Positions 7,801 to 42,000 of a stretch of 64,000 bases of DNA are shown here, one piece after another. This DNA is from Enoplolaimus lenunculus (Eukaryota): contig JASANG010000727.1 of NCBI GenBank assembly GCA_030248215.1, positions 310,001 to 374,000 on the forward strand. The letters run 5' to 3'. A program made the translations under genes and the position numbers. Under the pieces are notes generated by a model. The model did not search any database, had not been told where the DNA came from, and worked only from the letters and a program-made list of their open reading frames with translations. Within the stretch, counting starts at the first letter, position 1, and every line of letters starts with the position of its first letter.

Positions 7801-10800
7801 TTTTTGCTTAGGTTTAGGCTTAGGAATACGCTTTTGCAACGATTAAGGTTTAGGTTTAGGAATACGCTTTTGCAACGCTTATAAGGTTTAGGCTTAGGAA
7901 TAGGCTTTTGCAACGCTTATAAGGTTTAGGCTTAGGAATACGCTTTTGCAACGCTTATAAGGTTTAGGCTTAGGAATACGCTTTTGCAACGCTTATAAGG
8001 TTTAGGGTTAGGAATACGCCTAATCTTCTCTTACGGCCCTAAAAGTAACATTGGCCCATTATTTAAAACAGATTTCAGGCACAGATTTCCTGCAGATCAT
8101 GACTGCGCAAAAGTTTGTTCACAATCAACGAACAAAGACAAACCATGCATAATTACAAGTAAATCAAAATATAGCAAGAATTGTGTATTGTTGTCTGTAA
8201 ACGTAATTTTGAAAATTATTGCATGTTCAAATATCAAATGCTAAGCGTGTATTTTTTGTGCTCAATCGATTGAGTACCGTTTACTCTGTCATAATCAAAA
8301 CAGCCGGTAGCGGCACTTTTTCACTTCGCCCTCACACAGCTTAAATGCGGTGAACTTTTTAGTTAACTTTGTGTTGGCAATAATCGTAGCTAACAAACAA
8401 CGTTTTATAATAGAACGTCTCGGTATATAGAGAGCGGTGGGAAAAGCTGTTTACTTAAGGGAAGTAAAAATGTGCAGTAAAAGGACTTTCCAAAGCCATT
8501 TTTATATAAGCGGATTTGTACAGTAAAAATATTACTCTGCAAAAAATGGTGAGTCAAATAGGCTTTCTCCGAAATAGGCTTTTCAGGACTGCACAAATTG
8601 AGTTAAAATTCAACTCCATCAGAGTCACATTCGACTCACTGAGTCGCACGTTTGACTCTGGCGGAGTCAAGTTTGACTCAGTTTGCGTGATTTTGAAGAC
8701 TATATCGGAGATAGTCAATTTGACTCACCATTTTTTGCAGTGTACATAAAAATATAACTTATAACAGTGCCTCATTTATCAGCTATTTACGTTTGACCAC
8801 ACTTTCCATCCTGAATCAATCCAATATGTTCTGGTGGCGCCCGCTTTAGTAGTGAGTCTATATTAGCGGGCCCATGTATAGAACTGGGCCGGAACAGTAG
8901 TATAAGCATATTCCTAAGCCTAAACCTATGTCTAAGCGTATGGGATGAGCCTATTCCTAAGCCAAAGCCTAAGCCTAAGCCTAAGCTAAAAAAATTAGTC
9001 TAAAGCTTAAACTGACTCTATTATAGCGCCTCTGGGAAACGACTCGGCTCTGTTTTATACATGGGCCTATTAGCGTTACTTACGTTTTCAAATGTGATTT
9101 TTAAATTAAAATTATTTTAAAGAATCCAACGTAAGCACAGGTTCACCACTAAAGATAGTAATTTACGCTTTTGCTCGTTATAGAATCGTTCGTACAAACA
9201 AAACCAATTTCGAAGAAAAGCGCAAAATTAGGCAACAAAGTTCAGTTGATGCGGCTAAAACAACATGCGGTGGGTGAAAACACTGCGATGTCTGATGGCG
9301 AACGTTTATATATCACGGCTGAGTTGCCAGTAGGATTTAAATGGAAAAATTCGAGTCAAGCAATGGCATTTGTGAGCAAAGTAAGTGTTCATAGTACTGT
9401 AGTGACTCGAATAAGAGGAAATAATAAGAGAAGGGTCCCCGATTTGGAGTCCGTATCCCAAATAAGAGTCCGTAAGCGGATAGAGTTCCTAAACTCTAAT
9501 TAGAGTCCATAAATGTCTATTATTCCTAATAGTATAAATGTAATTAGTGTCCATAAATGTCTATTATCCCTAATAGTATGAACCAAATAAAGTTAATTTC
9601 GAAGCTTTAAAAGATATACTTAAGTTTTGAAAGTACTGTATTGACCCGAATAAGAGGGGGTAATAAGAGGGGGTTCCATTTTGGGTCCGACTCAATAGGA
9701 GTCCGTATCCCTAATAAGAGTCCGTAAGCGGATAGAGTCCCTAAATTCTAATTAGAGTCCATAAATGTCAATTAACCCTAATTGTAGCACATAAATGACT
9801 CCAGGACCAAATAATTTGAGTTCGAAACTTTAAAGCCTAATTAAATTTTGAAAGTACATTCCTAAATATAACCTTTTATAATCGCTCAAACTATTGAAAC
9901 GAGACAAATATACGTTTAATTCAACGGATAGTTGCACTACCGGATATATATCAGCAACGGAGGGCGGCGGAGCGTGGGTTAAAAATAAATAACAGTCCGT
10001 AACCGAATAACAAGGGGGGGTACCCTCTGGAGAGGCCAAATAAATATCAGTCCCCCCTTCTTATTCGGGTCAATACAGTACATTTCTACAGGGCTGTTTT
10101 TTCCGGAAAAAAATTATGACCGGAAAAAAAGGATTTTTTTTCGGGAAAAAATGGAAAAAAATTAATTCTTAGTCTGAGTGATCGGTTAACCCACCCTTAG
10201 CCGTCGTTTGCCCAAAAATGCTTGCATTTTGAAAGTTTTTGCATATTTGAGCGTCTGGTGACATCGTGTGATTATTCCATGGCTAAATCTGAATTTTGGA
10301 AATATTCGAATTTTAAGGTCATAAGTTCAGCCCCCTGTATCCCAAAATTTTTTTCGATAAGTTGGACAAATTATATATTGCTGACTAGTTTAGGCAGACG
10401 TCTGATTGGGAAACATCTAACAATATTCGTCTTAGCTCCGCAACTTGTGTCAAATGGTATATAATTTGTATAATTTTTTGCCAAAAACATTTTAACTCCA
10501 GTGGTGGAATTTGGGACCTTAAAATTCGATTTTTTTAAAAATTTAAGTTTTGGCATGGAATAACCGGAGGAGGTCATCAGAACATCAGAAACGCATCGGT
10601 TGAGCGAGCTAAACAAGCCACACTTTTGGGTTTTTTCTGACATCGAAGCCTCTCAATTGCTGCCACCTCGCGAGCAAAGCGAGGTTGAAGCTAAGCGTAT
10701 TCTTGTGTTAAATCATACGGTAAAAGCAAGCGTTCAATTTTGAACGCCCTAACTTTGGCTCCACTGTCGACAAAACCTGTGAGAGAACAGAACAAGTTGT

Positions 10801-13800
10801 ATATGTAGTTTACATTGAATCTCGTGGCAAAGTTTCAATTCTGAAATCCATTTATACATTCATATACTGCAATTTTCGCGCTTTTTGGACATATAATGTG
10901 TCCTGGTGGACATATATATACACACGGTCACGGTTAATGTGTTGCATGAAAATTAGTTACACGTCATCTAAAAACGTTATTTTGTATCATATTTAGTTGC
11001 AAATTTATATAAGAATCGTTTAATATTTTTCTATTTTTTCCTATTTTTTCCACCCCCTCGGAAAAAATGAAAAAAAAAACATTTTTTCCGGTAATTTTTC
11101 CGGCCAACAACCTCGTTTCTAAGTATAAAACTTTGCATTATCGCATCGAGCTTTTGATACTAGACAAATAAACATTTAATTAAACGGAGAGTTGCAACAC
11201 CGGATAAATATCAGTTACGAAGGGCGGCGAAAGGCGGATTAAAAATAAATAACAGTCCGTAACCGAACAACAGGGAGATACCCTCTGGAGAAGCCAAATA
11301 AATATCAGTTCCCCCTCTTATTCAAGTAACAACAGTAATGATGGACCATGCACATATAGAACAGCGCCGGAACAGTAGTTGTAGTATAACCGATCTCAAT
11401 CCGGATGCAGATGAGTTCCATCCGTCGAGTTCCGGTGTTCGGCAGGCGACCGACCTGCCGGCACCGATGCCAAAAGGAGCAAGTGCACATAGTGGTGAAC
11501 AGGATTCTGCCAATGTAAATCTCTAATTTTGTTCCGGTTGTATAGCTTCTTAATAGTGAAATTTTCAGTATACCGAAACTCTGACATTAGGCAACTTATA
11601 TTTGATGCAACTTTTAATTTTACTGTGGCTTTTCTGCCATAAAAGGCTTTACCTCTTTTATACTTTACAAGTTTTAAATAAAGTGTTCACAAAGCTGTGT
11701 ACATTCTGTAAGCACCTCTAGCGAGGTTAGGAAAATTGTTTGCAAACACTCAACCCACATATTGAGTTATTTTTCCGGATAAGAATAGTAGTAGTTAGGG
11801 GTTGTTTAAGTTACCTGGGCTGATCAGCCACAGGTTAGGTGAACGAACGGATATTTGGCGATCTCCAGCGTAGTGCGCGTTTTCTAGTGTGTACACTTAG
11901 TTGATTAAGTTTAAGTAGTTTCAAGTTACTATGGTATGCTTATGCCTAAGCTTAGCTAAAATCCTAGCCTAAGTTATTATTTCCTTCGGGACGGTGCGTG
12001 GCTCATCGAGAATTAGCCAGACGGGTCCGCCAGGTATCCGGTTATCCACCTGGTGTCCAATGTGCAAGCCGCTATCGCGGCCTATTTTACCGGTCCGGTT
12101 CCGTAGAAGACCCCTTTTTTCGTGTAGTAGTAGTGTGTGATTATTCCTGGCCCGTGTAAGCCCACCGTAATAGCTGGGAGGTCCCGCCTTCATCTCCCAG
12201 GGTGGCAGTAAAAGGGCGTTTTATCGTAGCACCCCTTGAAGTCGGCGCGTCGTATCCTCCTACGGAACCGGACCCGCGGCTCTGCCGCCTAATAAAGGCG
12301 GCTGGGATTCGGCTGATCCACTCATAGGGGTGTATCTGATGAGTGTGATCACTCGGGGTTTAGGGACGTCCGTCTGGGGGCCCGGCTGTCCGTTGCGCAA
12401 CACCCGTTGGATGGAGGCTCGCCGGTGGGATCCACGCTGGGGAGTTTCCTGAATGCGGGTGGGACGGTCACTCCTCGTCGGGGGTTCCGGCTCTGTTTGT
12501 TCGCTCTTATTGCATACACACTAGACCCTATGGACTTCGCGATTACGTCCAAGGATGTCGACCCAGGATGTACCCACTCCGGACATGGGAGACCTCTCGT
12601 CCTGGCTAAAGGCTAACATCCAGTAAAGTTAAGGGAGCTGAGAGTGGGCAGCAATCTAAATTCCACCTTTAGCTTTACAGTTTTCAGAAAAGGTCATATA
12701 TGCAGATTGTTCTTGCTTATAAATTACCCAGTTGTTAACAAGCTGTTTAGAGTAAAAATTCGTATTTTCAACGCGGCTTCAGTAAACAAGTTTATTCTGA
12801 TTGAAACAGACAACACGTTTTGATATGAACACCCTTTGTTTGTTTGTTTGTTTGTTTGTTTGTTTGTTTGTTTGTTTGTTTGTCTGTTTGTTTGTTTGCT
12901 TGTTTGTTTGTTTGTTTGTTCAGCCCCTTTGAACAAACGTCAACGTTAGTTTACAGCAGACATAAGTAGCTAACATTCATTTTACATATTTCAGAACTGG
13001 ACCGTCGGCAGGGCGATTGATTCGATAGCTAAATTGTTCAAATTGCCAAATCAAAACAATATAGCGTCTGCAAAGGTAAGCACGAACTCAAGCATGTAAA
13101 ACATGAAACAAAATAGTAAGTACACTTCCAGTTCTGATACAAATTTTAGTTTTAGTAAATAATGCTGGTTTCGTGTTATTTATCGTGTGTTTACTCTGAG
13201 TTTGTTTGGCTAAATTTGGTTTTCGATATTTGAATTGATTTTAACCATAAAATTATTGGCCAGTGTTACTTTAGGTAAGAGGCGTAACCGTAGATAAGCG
13301 TATTCCTTAGCCTAAGCCTAATGCGGCGTTCACGTTATAACTGGGGCAGCTTGGAACACGTTTTGTCCAATGTTGATTCGACGTCAACATAAAATTCTGT
13401 GATCCGAATAGCGGTTATGTAGACCAAATGTGAATGTCATATGACATTGGCTTACAAATCACTGATGTCAAGCGATCATCGTATACAAATAACCATTTGT
13501 CATATGATGCTGCGGGACATTTATGCGAATGTCATTTGATATTCCAAAATTCTACTAAATATCATAATGATTTCGCAAGTTGAATTAGCTTCTACGTTCT
13601 GTTTCTCGCTAAGTTTTTCCCAAAATATATTCCTAAGTATAAATAATTCAAATTTGAAATTTTAGTATCATATGACATTCTACAGTACAATCAAGCTAGT
13701 TTAACACAACTTTGCAGACATTTTCAAACATATCATATGATACTCGCAGACAATATTTGGAATATCATATGATATTGCAGTACAAACAGTAGATGTCACA

Positions 13801-14205
13801 TCAGGATAGCAGACAATTCAAATTTTTTGAATCTCATAGCGGATAAACGGTCAGACAAAATGTTACCAGCTATAGTCATAGGGACAAAACGTGTTCCAAG
13901 CTGCCCCAGTTATAACGTGAACTCTGCATAAGCCTAAGCGTTGCGAAAATGAGTTACTAAGCCTAAGCCTAAGCAAAAAATGTAATCTTATAATATAAAC
14001 CTACTGTTTTAGAGACCAACCCGAAACATGGACGCCCCTTAAAGTAACACGGGTCAAATTATTTTAGAAATTATGCCTGTTTTTGAACGAAAGCGAGTCT
14101 CCTGAGCCGGTTGAATTAAAGATTGAACAGTTAATACAAGAAAACAAATTGTTTGACGGATGTAACTTAAAACTATGTTATGTTGAAGGCGCCTTACCGA
14201 AATAA
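1884..14205 (+). CDS. ZFAND1: AN1-type zinc finger protein 1; exons 1884-1941, 3809-3851, 5850-6050, 8079-8158, 9184-9380, 12995-13075, 14068-14205
   Basis: Phase-consistent GT-AG exons give MSEFPELGRNCTFEGCGKLDFLPVLCSNCNRVFCPNHH..HQC, a second AN1 finger (CEYC..CSDCNNMFCLKHRFPADHDC), then KVQLMRLKQHAVG..ERLY..WTVGRAID..NQNN..KLCL..LFDGCNLKLCY*. This matches the ZFAND1 layout of two AN1 fingers plus a ubiquitin-like C-terminus. Confidence 0.9.
4630..4701 (-). pseudogene. tRNA-derived (Pro-like) cassette in LTR, copy 1
   Basis: A box TGGCGCAGTGG, B box GTTCGATCC and a partly pairing acceptor stem, followed by TTTT. Anticodon and T stems are degenerate. Confidence 0.7.
4994..5065 (-). pseudogene. 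tRNA-derived (Pro-like) cassette in LTR, copy 2
   Basis: Identical to 4630-4701. Confidence 0.7.
8869..9067. mobile_element. Merlin-like MITE containing TTAGGC repeats. Many related copies, e.g. ~7724-8056, 21375-21550, 22427-22599, 52254-52464, 59964-60166, 62439-62719
   Basis: GGCCCATGTATA...TATACATGGGCC termini with perfect 8-bp TSD TATTAGCG. The 62.4-kb copy has TSD CTACAAGG. Internal (GCCTAA)n. Confidence 0.7.
9636..10078. mobile_element. Tc1/mariner-superfamily MITE. Other copies at ~3865-4281 and 53244-53671; partial copies at 9397, 11333, 15060-15420
   Basis: TIR CTGTA(G/T)TGACCCGAATAAGAGGGGG flanked by TA on both sides. Confidence 0.8.
11869..12618 (+). mobile_element. Probable solo LTR (750 bp, GC-rich)
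   Basis: GC-rich island bounded by 5-bp direct repeat TCCAG (11864-11868, 12619-12623). Termini CGTAG...CTAACA; internal AATAAA at 12291. Confidence 0.5.
12835..12920. repeat. (TTTG)n microsatellite
   Basis: Direct reading. Confidence 0.95.
13322..13928. mobile_element. PIF/Harbinger (Tourist-like) MITE nested in a TTAGGC MITE; second copy 54902-55557
   Basis: TIR TGCGG(C/G)GTTCACGTTATAAC..GGGCAG with TAA TSD in both copies. Confidence 0.75.
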
Positions 14206-14247
14206 AATTACAGTAATGTTTTTGTTTCGACTGCGGATAACAAAAAC

Positions 14248-15053
14248 ATACCAAAAAGCGAATAAAATTAAGAACTTGAAAAATATACCAAAAAGCGAAT
14301 AAAATTACGAACTTGAAAATATACCAAAAAGCGAATATAATTAAGAACTTGAAAAATATACCAAAAAGCGAATAAAATTAAGAATTTGAAAAATATACCA
14401 AAAAGCGAATAAAATTAAGAACTTGAAAAATATACCAAAAAGCGAACAAAATTAAGAACTTGAAAAATATACCAAAAAGCGAATAAAATTAAGAACTTGA
14501 AAAATATACCAAAAAGCGAATAAAATTAAGAACTTGAAAAATATACCAAAAAGCGAATAAAATTAAGAACTTGAAAAATATACCAAAAAGCGAATAAAAT
14601 TAAGAACTTGAAAAATATACCAAAAAGCGAATAAAATTAAGAACTTGAAAAATATAGCAAAAAGCGAATAAAATTAAGAACTTGAAAAATATACCAAAAA
14701 GCGAATAAAATTAAGAACTTGAAAAATATACCAAAAAGCGAATAAAATTAAGAACTTGAAAAATGTACCAAAAAGCGAATAAAATTAAGAACTTAAAAAT
14801 GTACCAAAAAACGAATAAAATTAAGAACTTGAAAAATACACCAAAAAGCGAATAAAATTAAGAACTTGAAAAATATACCAAAAAGCGAATAAAATTAAGA
14901 ACTTGAAAAATATACCAAAAAGCGAATAAAATTAAGAACTTGAAAAATATACCAAAAAGCGAATAAAATTAAGGACTTGAAAAATACACCAAAAAGCGAA
15001 TAAAATTAAGAAATTGAAAAATATACCAAAAAGCGAATAAAATTAAGAACTTG
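14248..15053. repeat. 37-bp tandem satellite, ~22 copies
   Basis: Unit TATACCAAAAAGCGAATAAAATTAAGAACTTGAAAAA; 37-bp period checked (14251 to 14288). Confidence 0.95.
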
Positions 15054-15980
15054 TTTGAGTCCCAATCAATAGGAGTCGGTATCCCTAATAAGAATCCGTA
15101 AGCGGATAGAGTCCCTAAATCTTAATTAGAGTCCATGAATGACTCCATGACCAAATAAAATTGAGTTCGAATCTTTAAGGTGTACTTAAATTTTGAAAGT
15201 ACATTCCTAAGTGTAACCTTGCATGATCACTCAAGCTACTGACGCAAGACAAATAAACATTTAATTCAACGGATAGTTGCAGCACCGGATATTTATCAGT
15301 AACGAAGGGTGGCGGAGCGTGGGTTAAAAATATAACAGTCCGCAACCGAATAACAAGGGGGGTAACCTCTGGAGAGACCAAATAAATATCAATCTCCCCC
15401 CCCTTATTGGGTCACTACAGTAATGCCGTGTTTAAAATTACACTGATGTCGCGTACAAACTTTCCAAACGTTTAACAACAGCCCCTATGGTAAAATCTCG
15501 AGCTCTCGACAAGTCGAATGGCAAAAGATTTTTTGTCCGATAAAATATTCAAAATTTAACATGAGATTAGGCAGTTGAGGGCAAACTAATAATATTAACA
15601 GGGTGTCCGCATAAATATCACAAGATAATTTTCAGAATTTTTAGAACCATTTTTCCGGTTTCCAATTTGTATAAAGAAAACCTTAACCTAATCTATGTTT
15701 TGTAAATAATTTTTCCGTTCATCAAAACGGATCAATATAAACAATTGAAGTTTTCTAACCTTTATTGTAGACTCGGAACGCACGGGTCGTGCAACTCCAT
15801 TTTCCATCTGCGGTACTGTGGCCTTCATAAATTGTTACTTACGTTCACAGCAGTTTCTTCTGTAGCTACTCGATCAATCTGTTGCTCCTGTGTTTTCGTT
15901 TCCATTTGTAAAGCTCGTTTCTTCGCTGTAGGTCAACTGATTTCTGCTCAGCTTGCTGTTTAATAAATGCTCACGCAAGT

Positions 15981-17351
15981 TTGGTGCAATCTTGCTTTTA
16001 TTTGCAATCTCCTTTTATTGTTCGAACTTTACATCTATATGGCGTCCCCTTTGAAGTTCCGGATAAAGCGCTACAGTCTTTCTTAGCTGCTCAAAATATT
16101 CAGTGCTTGCAACCTGGTCGTTTCATCAAGCATCGAGGAAGTGAATACATCTCAAGTGGTCGAAGTTTCTTAGTCCAGATCCGCCGCGACTATAAAATAC
16201 CTCCTCGGCTCGAATGGTGCGATCCTCATTTTAGGCGCGGATATATTATAATTCGGGCATGGTACCCGGGTATGGGTCGGTATTGCAAATCATGTTATAA
16301 ATTTGGACATGAACAATTAGATTGTGTTGATTTTCCTGCTTTGAACAACACTGAAGTGGACACGAACTCAGCTAAACAACAACAAGAAGAGCAAGAACCC
16401 AAACAACAGTCACAACAACAGCAGCAACAGAAACAACAAATACAACAACAACAATTACAACAACAACGGCAACAAATGAAAGCCGGGATAGACAATGATC
16501 GCAGCATGTTAAATACAAACAAGCAGTTTCTTGATATCAGTAACTTTATTATGGGGTTAATCAAAAATATTCAGTCCAGCATTAACAATGATATTATTGT
16601 GAGAGAACCATTAGCTTTAGTCATCAATGGAAAGCTGGATTTGACTAAACTGCCAGAATCCGGGAAATCTTTTCTCAATTTTTCTGCTTGGTATAGATAT
16701 TTGCATTTGAAACGATCGACGTCTCCGCCATTTCACCCTGAGGGTGAAGACGTTAAAACATTTTTTGATTCGAAACATCCAAGCAATTATCGTCTCTCGA
16801 ATTTCCATGTTGACAATCCAGTATCTGTTTGGGGCGAGTCTTTCTCATCTCCTGAAAAATTTGTCGCAGTGTGGAAGGCGAGATTCAGTGGTCGCAAAGA
16901 TATCGAAGAGAAGGTTTGGGGAACAGACGATCCTAAATCAATAAAATTTTTACATAGTCAGATAGTTTGGCCGGGTACAACGTTACATTATTTGTGTATC
17001 GTTTTCGAATTAATTTATACGATTTGTTTTGCACGAGCACAACAATGTGATGTGATTGGGCGCACACTATTGTCAACAGAGGGTCTATTGGTTGAGACTG
17101 TACCTGGGCCGGGGCCTTGGAGCTGCGGCCGTGGACAGTCTGATAATCGAGCTCAAAATAGAGTTACTTGGCGTCCTGGCAGTTTAAACTTAAATGGTGA
17201 CTGTCAGACTCTTGTGCGAGAACACATTATGTTACGAAAGGTGAGAACAGTAAGCACATCGTCTGATATATCCTCTCGCGTTACAGGTGTTAAGCGGTTG
17301 TATGAAGAGTCAGATGTGATTAGTGGCAAAAAGCCAAACATTGCAATGTGA
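15981..17351 (+). CDS. LINE ORF1p: RRM-like region, CCHC knuckle, poly-Q linker, C-terminal NADAR/YbiA-like domain (frame open from 15912; true start uncertain)
   Basis: LHLYGVPFEVPDKALQSFL and WYPGMGRYCKSCYKFGHEQLDC (16284-16325) are typical of L1/Tx1 ORF1. Poly-Q at 16376-16473. NADAR motifs LSNF, FSSPEKF..KA, DP..IK.L, LLST..LVE, WSCG, W.PG.LNLNG..VRE at 16752-17231. Confidence 0.85.
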   Translation: MVQSCFYLQSPFIVRTLHLYGVPFEVPDKALQSFLAAQNIQCLQPGRFIKHRGSEYISSGRSFLVQIRRDYKIPPRLEWCDPHFRRGYIIIRAWYPGMGRYCKSCYKFGHEQLDCVDFPALNNTEVDTNSAKQQQEEQEPKQQSQQQQQQKQQIQQQQLQQQRQQMKAGIDNDRSMLNTNKQFLDISNFIMGLIKNIQSSINNDIIVREPLALVINGKLDLTKLPESGKSFLNFSAWYRYLHLKRSTSPPFHPEGEDVKTFFDSKHPSNYRLSNFHVDNPVSVWGESFSSPEKFVAVWKARFSGRKDIEEKVWGTDDPKSIKFLHSQIVWPGTTLHYLCIVFELIYTICFARAQQCDVIGRTLLSTEGLLVETVPGPGPWSCGRGQSDNRAQNRVTWRPGSLNLNGDCQTLVREHIMLRKVRTVSTSSDISSRVTGVKRLYEESDVISGKKPNIAM

Positions 17352-17405
17352 ACGTGCATTTTTTTTTGTTTTACATGCCTTAAATTGATATGAAAGAGAG
17401 TCAAT

Positions 17406-20400
17406 ATGGATCTGCCAAATTTCTTTTCTTTTTCCAGTTTAAATTGCAGATCCATTAAGCATTTTCGAAAAGTGTCGATAGTTTTTGAAAGGATAAAAGA
17501 TTTGGATTTGATTTGTCTGCAAGAGACACATTTTAAAAACAATTGGGATGCAGAGATTTTTGATAGAATTTTCTCACGCAATTTTAAAATATTTCACAGT
17601 TTCGCAAGCGAGGAGAATAGTAAAACAGGGGTAACGGTCCTTATAAATAGGACAGCTCCTGTTGGTCAAATTGAAAACATTTTTAATATTCAGGGTAGGG
17701 CGGTCACGATTGCTTTTAGTATTGGCTCTCTTTCTTTTTTCTTAATTGGTATTTATGCTCCCGCGAACGGCGAGCAGCGAGTAGTTTTTTTCAACCAGCT
17801 GATGCAACAAGTGCAAAATTCGTTTTGGTTTGAATATAAATGTGTTATTATGTTGGGTGATTTTAACTTAGTTGAGGACCCGGTTTTGGACCGATCACGG
17901 CCGTCATATGATCAGCAGAAAGGCCTGAGAGAGCTTTATTGTTTGAAGGAACTGTTGGTGATATCTGATGTTTTTAGGGAGACGCATCCAAATAAAAACG
18001 ACTTTTTTACTTTTCTTTCAGACATTCATGGAAGTCAGTCTCGTATAGATCGGATTTATATGCCGGCTTTTTTACAACCGGGCGCTTTGTGTACCGCTCG
18101 TGCAGTGAACAAGACAGATCATAGGTTGTTTAGAGTTAAGATTCGCTTACCTAATTTAAAGAGAGGTAAAGGATACTATAAGATGAATACAATGCTTTTG
18201 GGTGAAGTCGGCGTACAGACCTTTGTTTTAACGCGGCTCAAACATTTAATGAACATTTCCACAGGGTTTTCTATGATGTGGGAAGTATTTAAGGCTGATG
18301 TTAAAACCTTCTTTGTAAAGTTGGGTAAAAATAAAGCTAAGGAACGCGACATGTTGAGGAAATCATTAGAGAGCCAAGTTATTAATGTACAAATGCTGAT
18401 AGGACAGTATCCAAACAATCCGAATCTCAGATCGGGTCTTAAAAAGCTAAAAAATGAAATCGAATTATTGAATGCATTTTATATTGCTTCTTGCAGGCAT
18501 AATACGTACTACGGTAGTGAGGTAAATGACAACGCCTCTTTAGCAACAGTCAAGTCTCTTCAACGTAAGAACTGGGAAGCCAGGCATATAAGCTCGATCG
18601 AAAGGTCTGATGGCACGTTAGTAACAGACTCAGATGCAGTTCTAGGTGAAATTACTGAGCAGTATTCCAACGTATTCAGATCGGAAGGGATAAGCGGAGA
18701 AGTTCTCAATTTTTTTCTGGCACAAAATGGTCTTTCCAAGTTGAGTGAGGTGGAAAACATACTTTAGAGGGACCCATTACGTCAGTTGAAATAGCGAGCG
18801 CTATTAAATCTATGCAGGGTAAAAAGACGCCGGGATACGATGGTATTCCTGTTGAATTCTATTGGCTGTTTTGTGGAATATTATCTGAATTTTTGTGTAA
18901 AATGTATAACGCGTTCTTGGATGATCTTAGGCTCAATTCCTCCGCATATGATGGTGTTATTACCCTATTATATAAAGGGAATGGAAGGAAAACGTGTCGC
19001 GATAATTGGCGGCCAATTACGTTGCTGAATATAGATTATAAGATTTTTACGAAAGTTTTGGCAAAAAGATTAGAATCGGTCATGAAATCTTTAGTCCACC
19101 CGGATCAGACAAGCTCGGTTCCCGACAGAATTATCCAAGACAGTGTTGCACATGTCATGTCTGTTATTCATTATGCCAATGAAAGCAACGCAAAGGCGTT
19201 GCTGCTATCAGTTGATCACAAAGCCGCTTTTGATTTGGTGGAGTGGTCATTTATTTTTGAGACACTTAGGGTCATGAATTTTGGCGAAAACTTTTTAAAC
19301 ATGATCAAATGTATTTAAACACCCGGATGTACAAGATCATCTGTTATAGTTAATGGTTTTAAGTCAGAATTTTTTCATGTTTTCCGTGGAATTCGACAAG
19401 GGTGTCCCTTATCGCCGTCATTATTTGTCATAACAGCGGAAGTGGTAGCTCATTATCTTCGAATAACTTCAAGAATTTCGGGGATACCACTATATGGCAT
19501 TAACACCCGAGTGACTAAGTTTGCCGACGACACTAATATTTTTCTAAGTAGGATTTCAGATATAAGTGTGGTTTTTGATGTTTTTGAAAAATTTCAAAAG
19601 GCCTCTGGCAGCCGACTAAAGGAAACTAAAACACAGATACTATTAATGGGCGATCTAAGGAACGCACTTGTACCCCATCAATATGCACGCTTTATTGTTG
19701 AAAGAGTGAAAATTTATGGCCTTTGGTTTGATTCAAAGGGACTCGATGTTCCTGAAAATTGGATAAAGTGCTATGAAGCAATTGCAAGTCTTGAACAGCG
19801 AATACCGCCCCGAGGTATCTCTGTTTTTGGAAAAATCCATCTTGTTCACATTTATTTTTTGTGTATGTTTAATTACTTGATAAAATTAGTAACACCCCCT
19901 GAGCAACTAGTGAAGGAAACTATCAATGTGGTTTATAAGTGGTTGTGGTACCCGTCTACCGCTAGTATTATTAGAAGGGATATCCTGTTTTTACAACCTA
20001 GTCACGGCGGGATAAATTTCCCAAATATTTTTGTCAGACTGAAAGTGAATCGTTTAATGTTTTATATTCGAATATTAAGAGGTACCGAAGTTGTGAGTTG
20101 GAAGAGATGTTTCGAACATTTCTTTCGGCAAGTTCAGTTTTCGACTAAACGTCAACTGAGACGCATTGATGTACCGGAGTTATATAAAGAGATACGGATT
20201 GCAATGATTGAGTCATCTTTTAAAATGGATGGAAATTTTTGTTGGTTTTTTGGCGAAAAGTTATCCTTAAAAACAGTGTCGGCAAATAAATTGTATAAAA
20301 TGTGGATACACGCTGTGTATAAGGTACTCATGCATCCTAAACATGTTTTTTGGCGAGACGAGCTAGGAGTTGAACCTATTTTTGTCGAGCGATCATGGAT

Positions 20401-20938
20401 ATGGGCAAAAGCGAAATATGTTGACGGCTCTGCGCGAGACGTCCATTTTAGGTTAAGACACAAGTCATTGTATACTAATCACCGCACTAGTCATTTTACA
20501 GATGGGACAAATATATGTTCGTTTTGTTATTTGGATGGAATCGAAGTGCGGGAGGATAATGTTCATGTGTTTATTTATTGTTTGCGGGCGCAAGAAATTA
20601 GTTTTTTCATTACTCCCGTTTTGCAACAGGTAGCTGGAGTAAATGAAATAACGATTTCGGATTTAATTTTGGGACGAAATATTCACGACCCATTAAAGAG
20701 AATAGCTTTTAATTTCATCGTCCAACATGCACAATTGGCAATATGGAGTGCTCGATGTAAACTCGAGTTTAACAATGAAAATGTCTGTGTTGTTGATGTT
20801 TTTCAGGAAAATGTTTATAGAAATTTGTGCAAACTTAAGCTGTATCTAAAAGAATGTTTTTTTAAGGTTTTTGGAACAATAACCCGACAGAATGATAGCA
20901 TGCTGGGTTTTCGAATGTCTTTTTCTCAGCGTACCTGA
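17406..20938 (+). pseudogene. LINE ORF2p (APE endonuclease + reverse transcriptase + C-terminal Cys/His finger) with one frameshift (~18764) and one in-frame stop (19316-19318)
   Basis: EN motifs: SLNCRS, LQETH, IYAP, GDFN, SRIDRIY, TDH. RT motifs: KTPGYDG, WRPITLLN.DYK, DHKAAFD, GIRQGCPLSP (read through the stop), FADD. C-terminal CSFC..EDNVHVFIYC. Confidence 0.95.
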
Positions 20939-22995
20939 TTTGTAGTTTGTTTTGAAACTAGGTTTCTTGTGTGCTTTTTAACATATTTGCTCTGAATAAT
21001 ATCCTTGCAAGCAGAGTAGAATAATGGGTAATTTTCAAGGACCTTTGTTATGTTATGATAATATGTTGTTGCCTTCTTTGGTTTATATAATTGCTTTCGT
21101 TGATGTAAATGTGGTTTATCCTTTTAATAAAACCCGGGGTGTTCGGCAAACGAGCGCTTCGGACTTAAACTTTATCGTAAACAATACTTAGACCCACAAG
21201 AGATTCTTTCGAGAGGTTTAACCACGCCTTCATTAATGGAAAAACCACTTTCCACCGTTGCATTGCCGTGTGACATGAAACACTTTCATGATAACTGACG
21301 AAAGTTTAGTAAATTCTTCTATTTGCTTGAAACCGGAACACAGTCGATCTTACTTTGCATTTGTTTATAATACTGGCCCATGTATAGAACAGGGTTGGAT
21401 CGTTTTCCAAAGGGGCTATAATAGAGTCAGTTTAACCTTTCGACTAATTTTTTGCTTAGGCGTAGGCTTCGGAATGGCTCATCCGTACGTTTACGCTTAG
21501 GTTTAGGAATATGCTTATACTGCTGCTCTGGCCCTGTTCTATACATGGCCATAATTCTTAAGGAGACGTTGATTTTACCCGCAGATTGGATCATGTTCCC
21601 AAACTGCTGGAGCGCTTTATCCGCGGGACTACACTGTAAATCTCAGTGAGTTGATGTTAGCTCAGAATGAATTGAATCACTCAGTCTGAGTTAGGACTTC
21701 GAACTCAGAATTCTGAGTCAATAAAACTCACTCCGAGTTAATTATTCAACTCACCCGGAATCAACTAAACTCAGAGTGAGAATCAACTCAACTTCCAACA
21801 AGTTTAGCAATTTTGTAGAGTAGAACTGTTGGCTTCGTCCAAAACAGCTTGCTTGACAAACCGACTTAACAGCATTTTGAGGAGGTTATGTAAACTCTTC
21901 GTACAGCATAGACGTTGTTAAAAGTTGTTTGGTTTTGCGTTAATTTTCTGCAAAATTTCGGAAATTCTTTCCTGAAAATTGTGACAAAAGTAAAACGAAA
22001 CTCGCTAGAGATAAATTTTGCAATACTATGCAAAATCTTACCACCGAAATTGCCGTAACTGTCGGCAAAAATTCTAGCGCATGAGAGAGACCGAATTTCT
22101 GCCGGAGCCGGACGCAGGACTCCGGTTGTACCTGCTTATTATGGCGAGGCCCCAACTATAAGGATCGTGAAATTTTTATAAACCGAGTTCTGCAACAATA
22201 TTTCCAGTATATACAGGATACATTAATATCGCAAAAGAGTGAGCGAGATGACCAGAATTATCCACACCTTTTATGACCTGCCTAAAACAGAAACTCGTTG
22301 AATCAAACACCTTTGCTTGTAGATTCGACAGTTTATTCAATTGTTTTATTGTACATAAATTATATAACTTACTGAAATCACAATGACATTTTGTTATATT
22401 TTTGATAGGTACATTTTTCACTAGCGGGCCCGTGTTACTTTAAGGGGCGTTCAGGTTTCTGGTGGGTCCATAAAAGAGTAGATTTAGATCTTAGATTACA
22501 TTTTTTTTGCTTAGGCTTAGACTTAGGAAAACATTTTTGCAACGCTTAGGCTTTAGGAATACGCTTAATCTGTTGCGCCCCTAAAAGTATACATTGGCCC
22601 AAATCACAATGACATTTTGTAACATTTTTGATAGGTATATTTTTCACTGTGGTTCAGAGTGCAACTGGAGGTAAAAACCTGAGCTGAAGCTCAACAAATT
22701 CTGCCGGAGACGTGCGGAGGTGAAACAGAATTAGGTAACAAAATTATGTGGAATTTGCAAACTGCAACATTCGTTTGTTAGTATATATTCTCAATTTGTC
22801 ATAAGCTTCTTTTTGCCAAATTACTGCAATTGCCTTATAGTTTAGAAACACACTCATTGAATAGCGCAATATTCCGTCACTGAAAGCAGACATGCTATCC
22901 AATAGTCTTATAGGGACGAAACGTGTCCCAGGCTGCCCCGGTTATAACGTGAACCCCGCGTTAGAAGCAAACTCATTAAATAGCACAACATTCAG

Positions 22996-25900
22996 TCATC
23001 GAGCCGCTTCTTCGATGCACAAGTCTCTGATTGCTCCGTTAAGTTCTTTAAGCTACAAAGCAACATAAAAGTTTCACATTACAGTATTTAATGCACTCTT
23101 ATAACTGAATGGACTAATCAACTGGAAGTCTGAAAAAAAGTCGGCATGCGACTTGAAATAAATAGCGGACACGAACGAATTTCTGATCTGTTTCAGGCTA
23201 TTGATGTCTGAAATACCAGACATGTATGTTTTGAAAATTTAAGAAATCAGAATTTTGAAATTTCAAGGCAATTTTTTGTGTGTGGATTACGCTAACGTCG
23301 TGCTCCACCTGATTAGTCGAAAATAGAAGTTCGTCAAAGAAAACTTTAGCTTTTGATACACAGACTATACATTACTTACTCCGTCGGTCAATTTCGTCAA
23401 ATTGGAATCAGCAAGTTGCCTTGCATTTACGGTTTCTTGTTGACTAAAAAGAAAAAATCGAACACAACTTTCCATTTTGTCAGCCCCCATTTTTCATAGC
23501 TCATGAATAACGTTCCCCTAATGTAATATTCTGTTCTTTTAAACTACGTTAAAGTGAAATGTAAGCTTCCATTAATTTTTCACGCAAAATTCCAATTTCG
23601 GTTATTTTTGAATGACTCAAATTTTGTTATTGCGTATCCTCCAGAACTGGTTTGGCACAAATCTCTGGTTTCCAACAATTGCGTTACTTACCACGCCAAC
23701 CGTTCATGTTCTGTGTATAACTCGAAATGTAATTTAGCCAATTTTTCTTGCCGATCTCGAACTTGCTTCATTTTGTCTAATGTGTCGTCAGCGACTGAAA
23801 TAAAATGGTTTCGAACATTTGAAAACATGGCGTTTAGCCACATTATCCGTTAAACCGATAGCTCAAACAACACATTTAGGATACAAAAATGAAATATATT
23901 ATTAAAGATCCAGCTATACTGAAAAAAATCCTGTAACCGCCTGTGCCATTTACCATTATGGCAACCAGGATGTAACATTTTAATTTTGGTCGGCGAAAAT
24001 GAAGATATTTTACTAAAAAATGACAATGAAAATGAATTAGATTTCATTAGTATAACATGTAGACCTTCACAATCGCCGGAAATAAGCCATCAAAGGTCGA
24101 TTTGTGGTTCCGTTTCCCGGTTCGTGTTCCGATTCTGGTATAGTAATTCCGGTTGCACCCTGATGGCAACTATAAATTTATTGACATCACTAATAACCCA
24201 ATATTGCGTCCCAAGTACTAAATATCGCTAAGTACTGTGGACGCTTGTACACTTTCTCCGCACAAGCTTAGGCTTAGGTTTAGGAAAATACATATTAAAA
24301 TCTAACCTTAAGGCTTTGCCTTAGCGTTTGCTCAAGTTGACGCCTAAGCCTTGACTCTAAATGTGGCGAAGAGCACACAAGCCGTGCTGTGGCCGACGCT
24401 TTTCACAAAAATCAGCAAAAAATCTCAGACGTAATATTTACTATGTTATCCAATTTGAAATCAAATACTGAACGCTTACCAAATGCGCGAAGTTTTCCGG
24501 CATTGAAATCTTCAAGCAAATTGAGTAAACCTTGCTCCATCAAACGAAGATCATTTTCGTCTATGAAAAATGAACGATGTTGACTATTGCTAGTCGGAGT
24601 ACTTGTGGCATAAAAGCCTGTATCCCCGTGTTTCAAATGAAACTTTTGAGGGTCATATTTGAATATCCCTGATCGCGTGCTAACACCCTGTTCAGAGGCT
24701 ACAGGCAGCGCAGTATGAAACTGTCCGTCGTCAACGTTCACCACCTTACCTCCTTGACCGCCATACTCCAGCGCTGTTGGTATTTCAATCTGAAGTTCAT
24801 TTTCACGCGCATTTCGTTGAATTAGCTTACTAGACTCATTTGACATACAAAGCTTACAGTCACTTAATGATTGTGCGATTCTAGTGTTCGAATTATTATT
24901 ATTATTATTATTATTAGACTGAGTTTTAGCGGTTGACCTAGCGGCAGTAAACTTAAACGCATCGAATTTTGAGCGAGAAGCAGAAATCAAAGTATCACGC
25001 ACATCACGCACACAATAATTAGCATCACTACGAGTATTACATGCATTACTATTACTGCTAGACCTATAACTGCCAACACCACCACTACTACTACTGCGCA
25101 TTACAGTGCTAACATCATTGCCGTTTTCAATTCGGCGTAACTTATTTCCTGCACCACGTGTTACACCGTTGACTGAGTTGATCGTGTCGCTTCCATTCGG
25201 AATTATTGTTTTTTGTTTTGAATTTGAACCAAAACGATGAAACAAAAAATCAAACCGCGATGAATTACAACTGTTTGACTGAAGTCGTTGTTGATCTTGG
25301 CCAGTAGTTTTCAAAATATTATTTACATTATGATCGCCAATACAATGTTGCTTGATGCATGGCGTAGACCCGGACGTTTTCGACAAAAATCTCACCGAAC
25401 GAGATCGAGTCCGATCGGTGTTGCGATTGTCAACGACTTTTCCAGCATTTCGCATCAAAACTGATTTGGGCTTCAACAAAGGCGGCGATGTTGCCACAGG
25501 AGTTTGTTGCGATGGGTCATTTCGGGGCACTTCGGGATTGTTTACAGAACAAGGTGACAATGGAGGCAGGGAAATTGAAGTAGGCGACAGATGGCATTGA
25601 GACATTGCGTTTGCATCGTTGACCAGATGTGGTAGTAATGTTGTTGTCACGACGTCCTCAATCGAAACGCGCAACTCATCGCGTTTGCCTAAGATAACAG
25701 ATATATGTAACGTGCAAAGAAGAGAAACAAACTAAAATACATTTTGCTAACGCTAAAACAGGATAAACTCATGCTAGTAAACAAAATATAGAGAAAATAA
25801 GTTACGTAACACTGCAAAAAAAGTTGTAAATAGTGAAAAGGGTTATTGTTTTTAGTAGCTGAAATAGTTCAGAGGTGGTAAACTGCACTAAATAAAGCAA

Positions 25901-28900
25901 AATTTGTTACTATTGCGCTATTTCGCAGCTAAACAAATTATATGCAGAAAGTTTAAATTAGATGCATTGGCTTTTGTAAACGTTCTAACGACATACTTTT
26001 AGGTTCAGCGTTCGCTTTAGCGAAAAATTTACCTAAGCCGAAGCGTTAATCATTAATGTCAGTCAGGGAAAAGAACAAGAGCCGAAGCATTTGGTTTCAA
26101 CATTGTAGTTAAACAGTATCTTTTACAACTTTGAGCGTTACCTAAAATCCTATTCGCGAGTTGTGCCCTAGTATTAATTGCATCGAGGTCCTGCCGATTT
26201 TTTGCCAGAGATTCCGACAATTTCACACATTTTTTATTATAATCTAGCTCATTTTGCTTCGACTCCATCTCCGACATATATGTAATTTGCTGACCTACGG
26301 CCTCGGGATGTACACTGTGACATTTACGTTAAGAAAGCATACATGAGTGCAAATTTTAGACAAAAATAGTCGTTCAATTATAAAATGCATGCGCTAAAAT
26401 CTAAACTATGTACAGAACAGAGTAAACTAAACATTAACGTTCAATTATAGTTTTTAGATATTTGTTAATTCGGGAAATTCTATCAATGGGTGGACTAGAA
26501 TGTTTTGTGAACTTGTGAAACAACAGTGTTTTTCCATCTATTCCAATAGTGACATTCTTCCTTCCGCTGTATGCACTTCTCAATTTTTTACAGCTGTTCA
26601 GCCGGTGTGCAGCTATGTTTTCTATAACCAGTGTTGTTGGCCGGAAAAAATTACGGGATAAATGGTTTTTTTTATTTTTTTCCGAGTGGCGTGGAAAAAA
26701 TGGAAAAAATTCATTTTTTCCCGTCATAATTTTTTTCCGGAAAAAACAACAACCTTGTCTATAACAGAGCTATCGTAGCGCAGAGGTTAGTTTGTTGGTC
26801 GGGCTGGCAATTATGACACAATGTTTAAACTTTACATCCACCGCGTTTCAACTGGTAATTAGAAAGGACCTAAATGTTTCCGGTCGAACCACAACCTTAT
26901 TTAGTATTTTCAGTCGGTAACATAAATTCGCTAAAGCGGCGTTCCTCTACGTAATAAAAGCTAAACACGACCTACACACAACAAACACACGAAAACCATT
27001 CCAAACATGGTTTCGAAAAATAAGCACAGACTAAATTATATTAAAATGACAACAGCGATAGAAGAAAACTGTTTTGTGAAAATGAATAGAAAATTGGCTG
27101 AACACCTACCTCATTATACCTTTACTTGAAGGTTTCCAACATTGATTAACTTTTAAATTTAACGCTTCAATACTGCTGTTTGTACCAGAAGAGACCACAT
27201 CTTACAGTTACATACACTGTAAAAACCGCAACACTGATCTCGGTTGCTGGTTTCTAACGGTAATGCTCGCAAACACAATTTAACTACTCGCGATTACTGC
27301 GACTATCATCGCGCCATCGTGGTACGCTAGTGTGAAAGTTTCAATCATATGTTACCGCGTTTCCTATCGCGGTTTGAAGCGCAGCAGGTCTCCGTTACAG
27401 AAAAATTTACACGAGATTATACAATCGCCGAGGTAGACACAAAGCAATGCACGTAGCCATGATTTTGGAAAGGAGTGTAACGTCTTAAATTTTCAAAGGG
27501 GGCTCTTGTGTTACCAGCTAAAATGCCTACAAACCCCTACTCAGAAATCCTAAAAGGTTTGACGTTGATCCCTCTTCGGCTGCGTCCTTCGCAGTACACA
27601 CAGCCGCGATTACACCGCACTTAATTCTGTCCGTAAGATTTCGAACAGTGCTTGAAGCAAGATTTATGACAGCTGGATTCCTCTTGGTAACGCTTAGATA
27701 TATTACGAAATAACCTAATATTTAGCCGTGTTAAGCCTATACCTAACACTATAGACATTTACCTCCACATTCCGTCGACGGTGCTGCCTCTTGCTCACTT
27801 GAAATTGAATGAGTGTGTTGAAACGCTTTCTTTTTCCCACCATCCGCAGCCACCTTGTCTTTTGCATTTGCTGAATGAGCGACACTTCCAGCATTGCCCA
27901 ACAACGGATAATCACGTGGTGGGACAGAAGAGTCCATGCTGTATGGATTGTCTTGCGAAGAAATAGCAGAAGTGCTGCCAGCATTTCGTAGCGAAGAACT
28001 CTGACGGTGTGATGAGCCTGAGTTAAACCCCATGCTTGAACCACAGCTTAAATCAATAACAACATTAGGACTAATTGCATTATCATCAACAGGAACAGTA
28101 GTTGACGTAGTGGTATTTGATAACGCAGAATGATCAATGTTAATTAACGGTATTGGATGCTGCACAGTAGCAATGGTGGCGGAAATGCTATCGTGAACAT
28201 GAGTAACGTCGACCGAAGATAAGGCTGAAATAAAAAACATACACACAAATAATATAAATCAAAAAGAATAAAACAAAACTAACTTGAGATTCTATCAATC
28301 AAAATCTCCACCCGCGACATATCTGCTGCAACTCCAAAATTCATTACGCTTACAGTTAAGTTGCTTTCAATTTTGCCGCAACGCCAGTTTAGCCATATTA
28401 TCTCCAATATAGCTATTAAGTCATGGCACCATGGCATAGTGGCTAGCCACCATAGCTACGGCGCCTGATTGGCTGACTTGTTGAAAAATCAAAACATTTC
28501 TCTTAACAGTACGTTCTAAAACTGCCAATTCAAAAAGTACGAAATAATGCTGATACCAATAGGAATACGCTATAAAACCATTGACCAATCACATTCCGAC
28601 ATAGTAGTCTGTTCTTTAGGTATGAATGTGCTGCACTCATGGTTTTTGTGTTAAATCAGGGTTTTCATCCACTTTTTTCAAAAACACCCAGCGAAATTAA
28701 AAACCCATAAGAAACACCACCAAGACTTCAAGGCTTTTTTACACAAAAGAATTTTACTGAATTCTGAAACATAAACCAAACTCAAACGCAAACTCAGACA
28801 AATATCCGTAATATTTTTGCTACTTTGTTATGTTACGTGCTGGGAGGCTAAAACATTCATTTCATAATTAACAGTATGCCCTGAGCCTGTCGGAAAGTTA

Positions 28901-30574
28901 CCAGCATGTTTTCAATCAGACGGATGGGTATAATGAACGCAAATATAGCCACTTGTTCAAAAAGTCCATTCCAATTGCTAAACTACCAACAGCTTACATA
29001 GGCCATTATTTCACTTTGCACAGCAATTTATGACTCGTTCCAGTACCCACATTTTATATGTATTTGAAAACTTGTATGCATAAGCCCTGGCTGCACAAAA
29101 TAGACCAAACACCTTACAACGTACAGATTAAGCTATTTTCATCTAATCAGGAGCTGTTGCAACCGGGGCTGGCCACAATGATATTTGGTGGCGTGGCTAT
29201 CCATATTGGCGATATGGCATCGTTTCATGATTAAGACATATACGTCAACAAGGAGCAAACTTGACTTTCGTGCTTCTATAAACTTTATAAATACCAAACG
29301 TATAGTACACGTTTACCTGCATCACTGCCATTCTCCAGCTCATTCAACTGCTGTCCATCTGACTGGTCATACCTTTGACCTGTTGTTGTTGCCCCGGCTA
29401 TCAACCCACTGGAACCAGCAAGGATTCCTGAACTACGCGACTGCGACGACCTTGACGTTGATGTACTTTTTCGGCTGCTTGCGCTTAAGGATAGACGTTC
29501 AATAAAATGACCAGATGCACCGCTACGAAAACTTCCACCAATTGACGAGATTTTTGTCGCCGCACGTTCCTTTGCTGCATTTTCCTCGTGAGATAAAGTT
29601 CCTCGATTTTGGTGATTCGCGTCTGATACACTAAACGACGTCATAGATTGCTGAGATTCGGCGGCGTCAAACTGCAATAAGAGAATAATAAATGTAGTAT
29701 ATAAGAACTCGATGTACCCATGTATCAGTGAGCAACCGGATATAAAAAAAAATAACAAATCCGGATATTTAATTGCATAAATCGGCTAAAAGTAGAAGTA
29801 AGTCACGCTAATTTCGTATTCCAAGCTATAATTTGTTATAATTTGGCCCGAAAACGTGTTTTGACATTAATTACGTTTCTTGGTATACTTCTTTCAACCA
29901 ATTCAAACAAAAGTAACTAGAAAATATTGTGATCTCAGTCAGTTTAATATCGATACATTTTCAGAAATAACAATCCTACAAAATTGTATGCCGGAGCTGG
30001 ATGCGGATGTTCTGGCAGAACCGAAGCCGGATATTCAATGCACTCCGCCCGGTATTAAACCGTACATTCGCGAACAGCTCGAGAACTATGGGATGTAAAA
30101 GAATCATAAACCTGATTCAAGCCTAAAAGCGAAAATATGTTGAATGGAAGCACGCAGAATTTTCGGTACTTTGCTTGAAATTATACACCAACATGGTGGC
30201 CCCCAAGCATATAACAGGGCCGGAACAGTAGTATAACCATATTCCTAAGCCTAAGCGTATGGATGAGCCTATCTATAAGCATATTCCTAACCCTATTAAG
30301 CCTAATCCTAAAACCTAAGCCTAAACGTATGGATGAGCCTATTCCAAAACATAAGCATAAGCAAAAAAATTAGTCTAAAGCTTAAACTCACTCTATTATA
30401 GCCCCTTCGGAAAACGATCCGGCTCTGCATTATAACTAAATGTGCTCAAGCTAACATGCGACGATGAACGAAAATTCTTTAGCCATATGACATATAGAAT
30501 TATACCTTGCCATTATCCTGTTGCAATCCGGTAGCAGACTTCAATCCCAAACTACTTCGTCGAGTGTTCTTCAT
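22996..30574 (-). CDS. CCDC28: CCDC28-family protein with long low-complexity N-terminus (~860 aa); exons 30574-30506, 29671-29317, 28224-27763, 27200-27110, 26314-26142, 25688-24480, 23794-23692, 23443-23380, 23052-22996
   Basis: SFFIDENDLRLMEQGLLNLLEDFNAGKLRAF..DKMKQVRDRQEKLAKLHFEL..ADSNLTKLTDGLKELNGAIRDL is the CCDC28 core. All junctions are GT-AG and phase-consistent; the 5' exons are less certain. Confidence 0.8.

Positions 30575-41999: not shown

Positions 42000-42000
<1 letters not shown>
41446..42000 (-). repeat. Tandem dimer (~273-bp period) of a tRNA-derived SINE-like unit
   Basis: Units start at 41446 and 41719; each has minus-strand B box GGTTCGATTCC and a tRNA-like 3' end GGCGTGGCCA. 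Confidence 0.7.

Follow-up and report, generated by a model that had tools for sequence, protein, structure and literature searches.

The LINE copy in the window

The window (the whole stretch of 64,000 nucleotides that was analysed) contains a 5'-truncated copy of a LINE whose features, all on the plus strand, are listed here with the basis of each assignment in brackets.

16002..21133, plus strand: 5'-truncated copy of an L1/Tx1-group LINE (contig junction at 16002, depth, A-run)
16002..17351, plus strand: ORF1, N-terminally truncated, 449 codons left (open frame; aligns to residues 162-554 of the relative P0003, E 5e-52)
16014..16280, plus strand: RRM-like domain and beta-rich segment of ORF1 (RRM inferred from pattern; 39/89 identities to P0003)
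16284..16325, plus strand: CCHC zinc knuckle, C-x2-C-x4-H-x4-C (by sequence; the motif is also present in 8 relatives, alignment A2)
16375..16475, plus strand: poly-Q linker, AAC/CAA repeat (tandem repeat; a gap in the relatives, so not common to them)
16743..17246, plus strand: NADAR (YbiA-fold) domain (profiles, model, residue map)
17286..17348, plus strand: basic tail with a conserved KR pair (K544 and R545 invariant in alignment A3, 8 rows)
17406..20938, plus strand: ORF2 with APE endonuclease, RT and C-terminal zinc finger at 20516-20581 (ATG at 17406; in three pieces)
21126..21133, plus strand: AATAAA and short A-run, the 3' end of the element (sequence)

The limits of the copy were set in part by the behaviour of assembled contigs. 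High-depth contigs diverge from the window at 16002, with 118-247 different letters upstream, and low-depth contigs span the flanks; the split at 16002 indicates that the window copy is cut within ORF1 and is left with neither start nor promoter. The 3' limit was set from the A-run and a low-depth contig that starts at 21145. The original prediction had described the ORF1 frame as uninterrupted, and the frame is indeed open from 15912 to 17351, but its first 30 codons belong to the flank and its start is missing, the 5' truncation at 16002 having been overlooked. The knuckle, the poly-Q tract and the two ORF2 lesions were found as previously stated, the reading frame of ORF2 being shifted near 18753-18767 and ended by a stop codon at 19316-19318. 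A Pfam search of ORF1 returned no RRM match, and zf-CCHC_3 matches weakly in the relatives P0003 and P0063. The KR pair of the basic tail is a possible nuclear localisation signal.

When a clade profile of ORF2 was compared with solved structures, human L1 ORF2p was the closest (E 1e-119), with R2 at 5e-26. Taken together, the two ORFs, the APE and RT domains, the C-terminal zinc finger and the proximity to L1 ORF2p assign the element, by sequence, to the L1 group (L1/Tx1).

Depth was read from the contigs of three public runs, which represent no more than 2 samples of 1 study and may stem from the window's own source. Across the NADAR region, single contigs reach depths of 361-452, as compared to 7.4 for the flank (X1), and of 3368-3526, as compared to 34.5 (X3); depth is not equivalent to copy number, but an element-to-flank ratio of about 50-100 points to a multi-copy family that carries the NADAR domain. 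Depth climbs towards the 3' end of the element, as 5' truncation would give. Of about 1350 ORF1 bases, 9 are different between the window and the high-depth contigs, 3 of these within the NADAR domain (two silent, one a Q/H exchange), and both ORF2 lesions are read otherwise in those contigs. The LINE family is young and multi-copy: its youth follows from the small number of differences and the different family reading at the lesions, which also mean that the unusual residues of the domain described below are traits of the family and not products of the decay of one copy.

Identification of the NADAR domain

The original prediction was that ORF1 carries a NADAR domain of the YbiA-like kind. 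Profiles, 61 of 63 relatives and the matches of a structural model to 8BAU and YbiA agree on this point, and the peptides that had been quoted for it lie in the plus-strand frame 15912-17351. The Pfam NADAR profile, PF08719, is covered from model position 2 to 162 (of 163) by residues 284-439 of the frame (E 2.5e-6), and a comparison of the domain alone (16731-17270) with Pfam produced PF08719 as the sole family match (E 5.2e-7, 30.5 bits). The HMMER comparison of the ORF1 C-terminus with Pfam that had been proposed as a check is therefore favourable, although the 28-30 bits scored by the ORF1 domain lie below the curated PF08719 cut-off of 35.1 bits. The YbiA-type profile TIGR02464 also matches the domain below its cut-off (E 1.6e-6), and the best matches in the ESM Atlas are NADAR clusters (0.94; 201 of 256 features in common), with a recognition value slightly below the trust line.

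A phmmer search with the domain against 1.84 billion representatives produced 63 matches. NADAR is present at E<=0.01 in 61 of these relatives, 57 of the 63 exceed the curated cut-off, and PF08719 passes that cut-off in 9 of the 10 best. Other ORF1 domains are the closest kin of the window domain, which shares 16-19% identity with the solved NADARs. A phmmer search of PDB sequences with the domain alone returned chance matches and no NADAR, and a word-indexed homologue search on the domain region yielded 0 of 95 candidates; an alignment profile of the domain retrieved 8BAU and 2B3W from the PDB sequences.

Modelling of the domain by AlphaFold2, which had likewise been proposed together with a Foldseek search, gave a pLDDT of 94.5 and a pTM of 0.88 from a 58-row alignment that includes canonical NADARs, on which the model is thus partly dependent; a single-sequence model with a pLDDT of 36 was set aside. 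YbiA and 8BAU were the only Foldseek matches of the model at E<0.001, so that this check too came out as anticipated. VIA-align was used as a second look after Foldseek, to which folds missed by Foldseek are invisible, and placed 8BAU at Z 18.2 (rmsd 2.7, 163 aligned), YbiA 2B3W at Z 16.3 (3.2, 156) and 8BAT at Z 8.2, with the next unrelated structure at Z 3.8; the three NADARs are the only clear PDB matches. The model has the helical core between two small sheets that characterizes the YbiA fold, and the substrate-channel Ser, Glu and Lys of NADARs are present as S23, E42 and K49 of the domain. On these profiles and this model the last third of ORF1 is read as a complete NADAR domain, and the domain call is considered secure.

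Active-site residues and the phosphate pocket

The structure 8BAU provides a map of the contacts made to ADP-ribose. As described in PMC11543638, E43 and E125 lie at the distal ribose, the pyrophosphate is contacted by K50, R79, W89, R93 and W133 and, through water, by D130, and Y84 sits on the adenine. The same source names E43, K50 and E125 as the mechanistically relevant residues and reports that hydrolysis is impaired in E125- and K50-equivalent mutants, with K>R tolerated in vitro; K50 has been called essential for phosphate binding. The E125-equivalent Glu of SCO5665 is reported to be essential (PMC12945103). In the numbering of the 8BAU paper, the window domain compares as follows.

Kept, plus strand: Glu at 16854 (E43), Lys at 16875 (K50), Lys at 16944 (K75), Glu at 17094 (E125) and Trp at 17118 (W133)
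Replaced, plus strand: G78 by H, R79 by S, W89 by Y, R93 by V and D130 by P (17109)

The NADAR consensus that the original prediction had traced is followed overall in its order, except that the 'E..s..D..W' loop has P in place of its D and that both pyrophosphate-binding Arg residues are replaced. The S-N-F motif is also retained, and one Lys that is conserved almost without exception elsewhere is Arg in the window domain. The residue at the E125 position is Glu, as in the YbiA subfamily, and not Asp or His; the pyrophosphate-pocket set R79, W89, R93 and D130, which is not kept in the window, comprises conserved features and not a published subfamily criterion. Membership in the BC4488 subfamily of DarT1-NADAR antitoxins is contradicted by the Glu at the site, by the Z of 8.2 to 8BAT and by the neighbouring gene, which is an APE-RT ORF2.

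The pattern of retention and replacement extends across the clade of ORF1 domains in which the window domain falls. The E125 position (17094-17096) is E in all 19 rows covering it, three rows with a one-residue longer loop slipping at this column (to T) in one alignment and reading E in the other. E43 is E in 17 of 19 rows, all 19 have K or R at the K50 position, and W133 is W in 19 of 21. D130, by comparison, is present in none of the 21 clade rows but in 52 of 56 other NADARs and in 6 of 11 other LINE loci, and the residue after it is Ser in 16 of 21 clade rows. R or K occupies the R79 position in 5 of 20 rows, Y occupies the W89 position in 12 of 20, and Arg is not among the commonest residues at the R93 position. 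As judged from these columns, this is a lineage that keeps the cutting residues while its phosphate pocket is rebuilt, and it is so clade-wide. The residues that were transferred from YbiA mutagenesis to SNA-3 include a D/W pair at a distance of three residues (PMC9303266); the D of that pair appears to be D130, in which case the D/W loop pair would be needed by YbiA.

In four ORF1 domains of other LINE lineages (loci L016, L024, L037 and L045), His stands in place of the catalytic Glu and D130 is kept; phage NADARs have His at the same position. As these are 4 of 11 such loci, catalysis may be dispensable there.

Relatives, linkage to ORF2 and selection

The best phmmer relatives are ORF1-like proteins with an RRM-like region, a CCHC knuckle, a variable linker, NADAR and a basic tail. 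One of these, P0003 (575 aa), aligns along the entire remaining ORF1 (E 5e-52) and has about 160 extra N-terminal residues. Identity to the window in the eight fuller relatives is 26-39% in NADAR, as compared to 11-23% in the linker. Eight ORF2 proteins are close to the window ORF2 (36-53% identity) and form with it a distinct 9-row RT clade with support of 100, in a FastTree analysis of 93 unnamed rows from which 5 short rows had been dropped and which contains no named Tx1 references. Three of the eight closest ORF2 proteins share source and contig size with a NADAR-bearing ORF1 (P0068/P0003, 5734; P0067/P0010, 5652; P0065/P0083, 12526), linkage in this closest clade thus being indirect, and relatives with 46-49% ORF2 identity carry NADAR at the same place in ORF1. 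P0003 was not found among metagenome contigs, and a search for relatives in viral contigs gave 0 of 79 stretches.

Direct linkage was observed at greater distance. In 11 of the best 80 of 428 confirmed metagenome LINE loci, NADAR lies in the ORF just upstream of ORF2, and the NADAR-bearing ORF ends 154-405 bases before the ORF2 match. Among the same best 80 of 428, the 42 loci with at least 1200 bases upstream comprise 10 with NADAR and 32 without it, so that the domain is optional for retrotransposition. In four pairs of distant LINE loci, which belong to a lineage other than that of the window and in two of which dS is saturated, dN/dS amounts to 0.07-0.15 for the domain, as compared to 0.32-0.44 for the tail. 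The linkage across distant loci, the low dN/dS and the absence from 32 of 42 loci together indicate a domain that is old, selected and optional.

These results bear on the proposal that NADAR is integral cargo of ORF1, which holds: the domain is present in the high-depth family contigs and in the same layout in distant relatives. In the search for sibling copies that had been suggested, the family contigs and the 11 distant loci carry NADAR and 32 of 42 distant loci lack it, and the dN/dS comparison that had also been suggested points to constraint (0.07-0.15, in the distant lineage only, with the same saturation of dS in two of the four pairs).

Phylogeny of the domain

Trees of NADARs were constructed after the exclusion of fragments under 110 aa and identical repeats, and those used for AU tests also exclude five multi-repeat proteins. 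The window domain has a long branch and groups with other ORF1 domains and fragments in one clade (18 rows, support 100/95; 20 rows in the other tree, SH-aLRT 99). This clade includes P0021, a Gypsy-type RT-RNase H protein of 900 aa in which NADAR lies behind RNase H and which is also without D130. The placement of this single protein would be compatible with a possible domain transfer between LINE and LTR elements.

In the free trees, the NADARs of other LINE loci lie outside the clade of the window domain, as do those of ORF1-like proteins with a coiled coil. When nested rows are included, an AU test does not reject the joining of the LINE NADAR groups (p 0.76), the joined tree lying 10 log units above the free tree; when nested rows are left out, the joining of the two groups is rejected (p 0.0013). 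One capture and several captures of NADAR by L1-group LINEs cannot be told apart on these sequences.

Five proteins (P0027, P0042, P0046, P0054 and P0064) have a coiled coil and, by eye, an L1-type ORF1-like region, followed by NADAR. On such inspection the coiled-coil proteins look like a second ORF1 architecture that carries the domain.

Relation to known systems

The original prediction knew of no NADAR in L1/Tx1 ORF1, and in this respect it has been overtaken: a 2025 paper (PMC12477816) describes a YbiA-family NADAR in ORF1 of several Crassostrea gigas Tx1 LINE families from Repbase, and in an Ectocarpus Gypsy Pol. The oyster fusion is treated there briefly, in one paragraph and Fig. S2; the paper suggests a role in RNA processing, and its passages on the fusion give no residue analysis. 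In a search of the literature outside subscription journals and Repbase Reports, the fusion was found described in PMC12477816 only, with no functional test. As the fusion is already in print, the discovery value of its presence here is modest; what is new is the deep lineage with a rebuilt pocket and the Gypsy-type protein in its clade.

The oyster elements share with the window a NADAR of the same family fused in an L1/Tx1-group ORF1; they come from a different host animal, and the comparison made here is at the level of their published description. The Ectocarpus Gypsy lineage IV is, like the window LINE, a retrotransposon with a YbiA-family NADAR, but it is an LTR element in which the domain lies at the Pol N-terminus and is 57% identical to bacterial NADARs (PMC12477816, Table S1). 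The ORF1 layout of the window, with an RRM-like region and a CCHC knuckle upstream of an APE-RT ORF2, is that of type I ORF1p of L1/Tx1 as given in PMC5203782, from which it differs in the extra NADAR and basic tail and in having a single knuckle.

Among the NADARs themselves, the Phytophthora nicotianae protein (8BAU) and E. coli YbiA (2B3W) share with the window the fold, S-N-F, E43, K50, K75, the subfamily-defining E125 and W133. They differ in being stand-alone enzymes with shown activity that keep D130 and W89, plus R79 and R93 in 8BAU, whereas activity of the window domain is predicted. DarG1 of DarT1-NADAR (BC4488 subfamily, 8BAT) and the phage orphan NADARs of gp30.3 type are members of the same superfamily and provide a precedent in genetic conflict; the catalytic residue is D in DarG1 and H in phage, as compared to E in the window, 8BAT is the weaker structural match, and the window has no linked transferase gene. 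C. elegans SNA-3 places NADARs in an animal RNP, with key residues that matter in vivo, but it is a host gene with three NADARs that acts in trans-splicing (PMC9303266).

Proposed function

LINE ORF1 proteins coat the RNA of their element. The reading that we favour, with a probability of roughly 45%, is that the ORF1 NADAR is an active N-glycosidase which acts on bases of the element's own RNA or cDNA, removing ADP-ribose or a closely related adduct with shifted specificity. ORF1p would be held on the element RNA by its RRM-like domains and knuckle, which would place many copies of the hydrolase on the template; this tethering could offset the weaker pocket, i.e. the lost Arg and Asp contacts, and reverse transcription could then proceed along a template cleared of bulky base adducts. 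Candidate sources of the adducts are a host transferase acting as a defence, a general stress mark and a microbial toxin. The retention of E43, K50 and E125 across the clade, while linker identity drops to 11-23%, counts for an enzyme, and the loss or near loss across the clade of the pyrophosphate contacts D130, R79 and R93 counts against activity. Hydrolysis is thus predicted from the residues, with a target specificity that is likely to be unlike that of the tested NADARs. NADARs act on G-linked ADP-ribose in both RNA and DNA (PMC11833690), and those tested strip ADP-ribose from G and in some cases from C and are inactive on thymidine-linked, phosphate-end-linked and 2'-OH-linked forms, as reported in PMC11833690 and PMC12945103. 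The PARP14 mark that was tested is a phosphate-end mark, which makes a base-modifying transferase a likelier opponent than a classical PARP. The counter-defence role put forward in the original prediction would require such a transferase in the host; guanine-modifying CARP-1 homologues are listed for bivalves, cnidarians, sponges and other bilaterians (PMC12945103).

The esterase domain in other ORF1 proteins probably assembles or steers the RNP. By analogy NADAR could be a non-catalytic module that reads ADP-ribose marks, or binds RNA or protein, in order to assemble or steer the RNP, a reading to which we give about one chance in four. The clade-wide loss of D130, R79 and R93 and the new conserved Ser beside the D130 position (16 of 21) fit such a binder, as do the E125>H exchange in 4 of 11 loci of the other LINE lineage and the retention of SNA-3 NADAR domain 1 despite its missing key residues (PMC9303266). 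Both glutamates and the K/R are nevertheless kept across a deep clade, and a pure ADP-ribose reader would be expected to hold the pyrophosphate contacts rather than the cutting residues. That it is precisely the pyrophosphate-binding part that is rebuilt, and the ribose-cutting part that is kept, can equally be turned towards an active N-glycosidase whose substrate is not an ADP-ribosylated base, with RNA ends or caps, RNA processing intermediates and small nucleotide signals as examples. Riboflavin intermediates are likewise cleaved by YbiA, and the authors of that work expect further targets for stand-alone NADARs; RNA processing is the role proposed in PMC12477816, and SNA-3 ties NADAR domains to nematode trans-splicing and the cap-binding complex (PMC9303266). 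This reading is set a little lower still, given that all tested NADAR subtypes hydrolyse G-linked ADP-ribose despite wide divergence (PMC11125620) and that K50, which binds phosphate, is kept as K or R.

Two further explanations would deprive the domain of a role in the element. The sub-cut-off Pfam score, the long branch and the absence of NADAR from most LINE loci examined could be taken to indicate a neutral passenger or a one-off chimera in the window copy; this is largely refuted, and is very improbable, since NADAR is found in the high-depth family contigs and in the corresponding position of ORF1 in relatives whose ORF2 is 46-49% identical, is far better conserved than the linker, and has a dN/dS well under 1 in other lineages. 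NADARs are host genes in nematodes, molluscs and other invertebrates (PMC11125620), so that a host NADAR gene beside a LINE, or a domesticated ORF1, might be envisaged, but the depth and junction data refute this and leave it the least credible of all the readings: the domain has no introns, is in frame with the knuckle, lies in an ORF that is 54 bases from the ORF2 start, and is within the limits of a multi-copy 5'-truncated element.

If the favoured reading is correct and the domain erases base-linked ADP-ribose, then it would point to a chemical defence of invertebrates against transposons and to G/C ADP-ribosylation as an endogenous process in animals, the latter being treated as an open possibility in PMC12945103. 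A broader conjecture, which we consider unlikely as a whole, is that invertebrate hosts ADP-ribosylate the bases of retrotransposon RNA or cDNA as an unrecognised defence, that several LINE lineages answer with an ORF1 NADAR eraser, and that the rebuilt pocket, which is also found in the Gypsy-type Pol protein, is an adaptation to a particular host transferase, in a eukaryotic parallel to the phage orphan antitoxins against DarT1. Whatever the substrate, the clade constitutes a natural series in which the cutting residues are constant and the phosphate pocket is varied, and which lends itself to direct tests of the substrate and of the role of D130. An abundant young L1/Tx1-group family would itself be noteworthy in a nematode, should the host be one.

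Insertion site and other features of the window

The flanks of the LINE at 15882-16001 and 21134-21282 (minus strand) read as consecutive pieces of the C-terminus of one decayed DNA transposase. It contains the motif 'ATVESGFS', which we take to be that of hAT-like transposases; a comparison of the fragment with Pfam gave no match. The LINE thus seems to have landed at a T/A-rich site inside an older DNA transposon; a repeat search of both junctions revealed no clear target-site duplication. At the 5' junction (15985-16019), the truncated element begins with 17 bases that resemble the preceding 17 flank bases (scored as a tandem repeat with 88% match), and this offset gives the best match among 5115 element positions; the likeness suggests homology-guided 5' joining with both copies kept. 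Many Tx1 families have a sequence-specific target, such as an snRNA, a tRNA, a microsatellite or a transposon. An Rfam search of 13000-24000 returned no match, and the window provides one insertion only, at a T/A-rich site in an apparent transposase remnant.

On either side of the LINE lie short interspersed repeats of very high depth (15054-15422 and 21375-21548), which are probably MITE-like. Tandem arrays are present at 14242-15053 (37 bp units), 56394-58752 (24 bp) and 63423-64000 (9 bp). TTAGGC, the nematode telomere repeat, occurs 84 times in the window as compared to 28 +/- 5 expected, partly in short arrays, and TTAGGC-rich interspersed repeats are found, for example, at 59579-59702, 62489-62639 and 7810-8019; the excess makes a nematode the likely host. 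An Rfam search of the window found no RNA. Two copies of a 282-bp unit at 41446-42001, with a stretch that is tRNA-like by eye and is followed by an ATT run, are a possible SINE; the unit has no Rfam match at the gathering score. The gene layout of the window is in keeping with an animal, as is a large exon on the minus strand (24412-25731) at whose end a CCDC28 domain begins (Pfam E 1.7e-9); further likely exons are located at 27749-28258 and 29285-29785.
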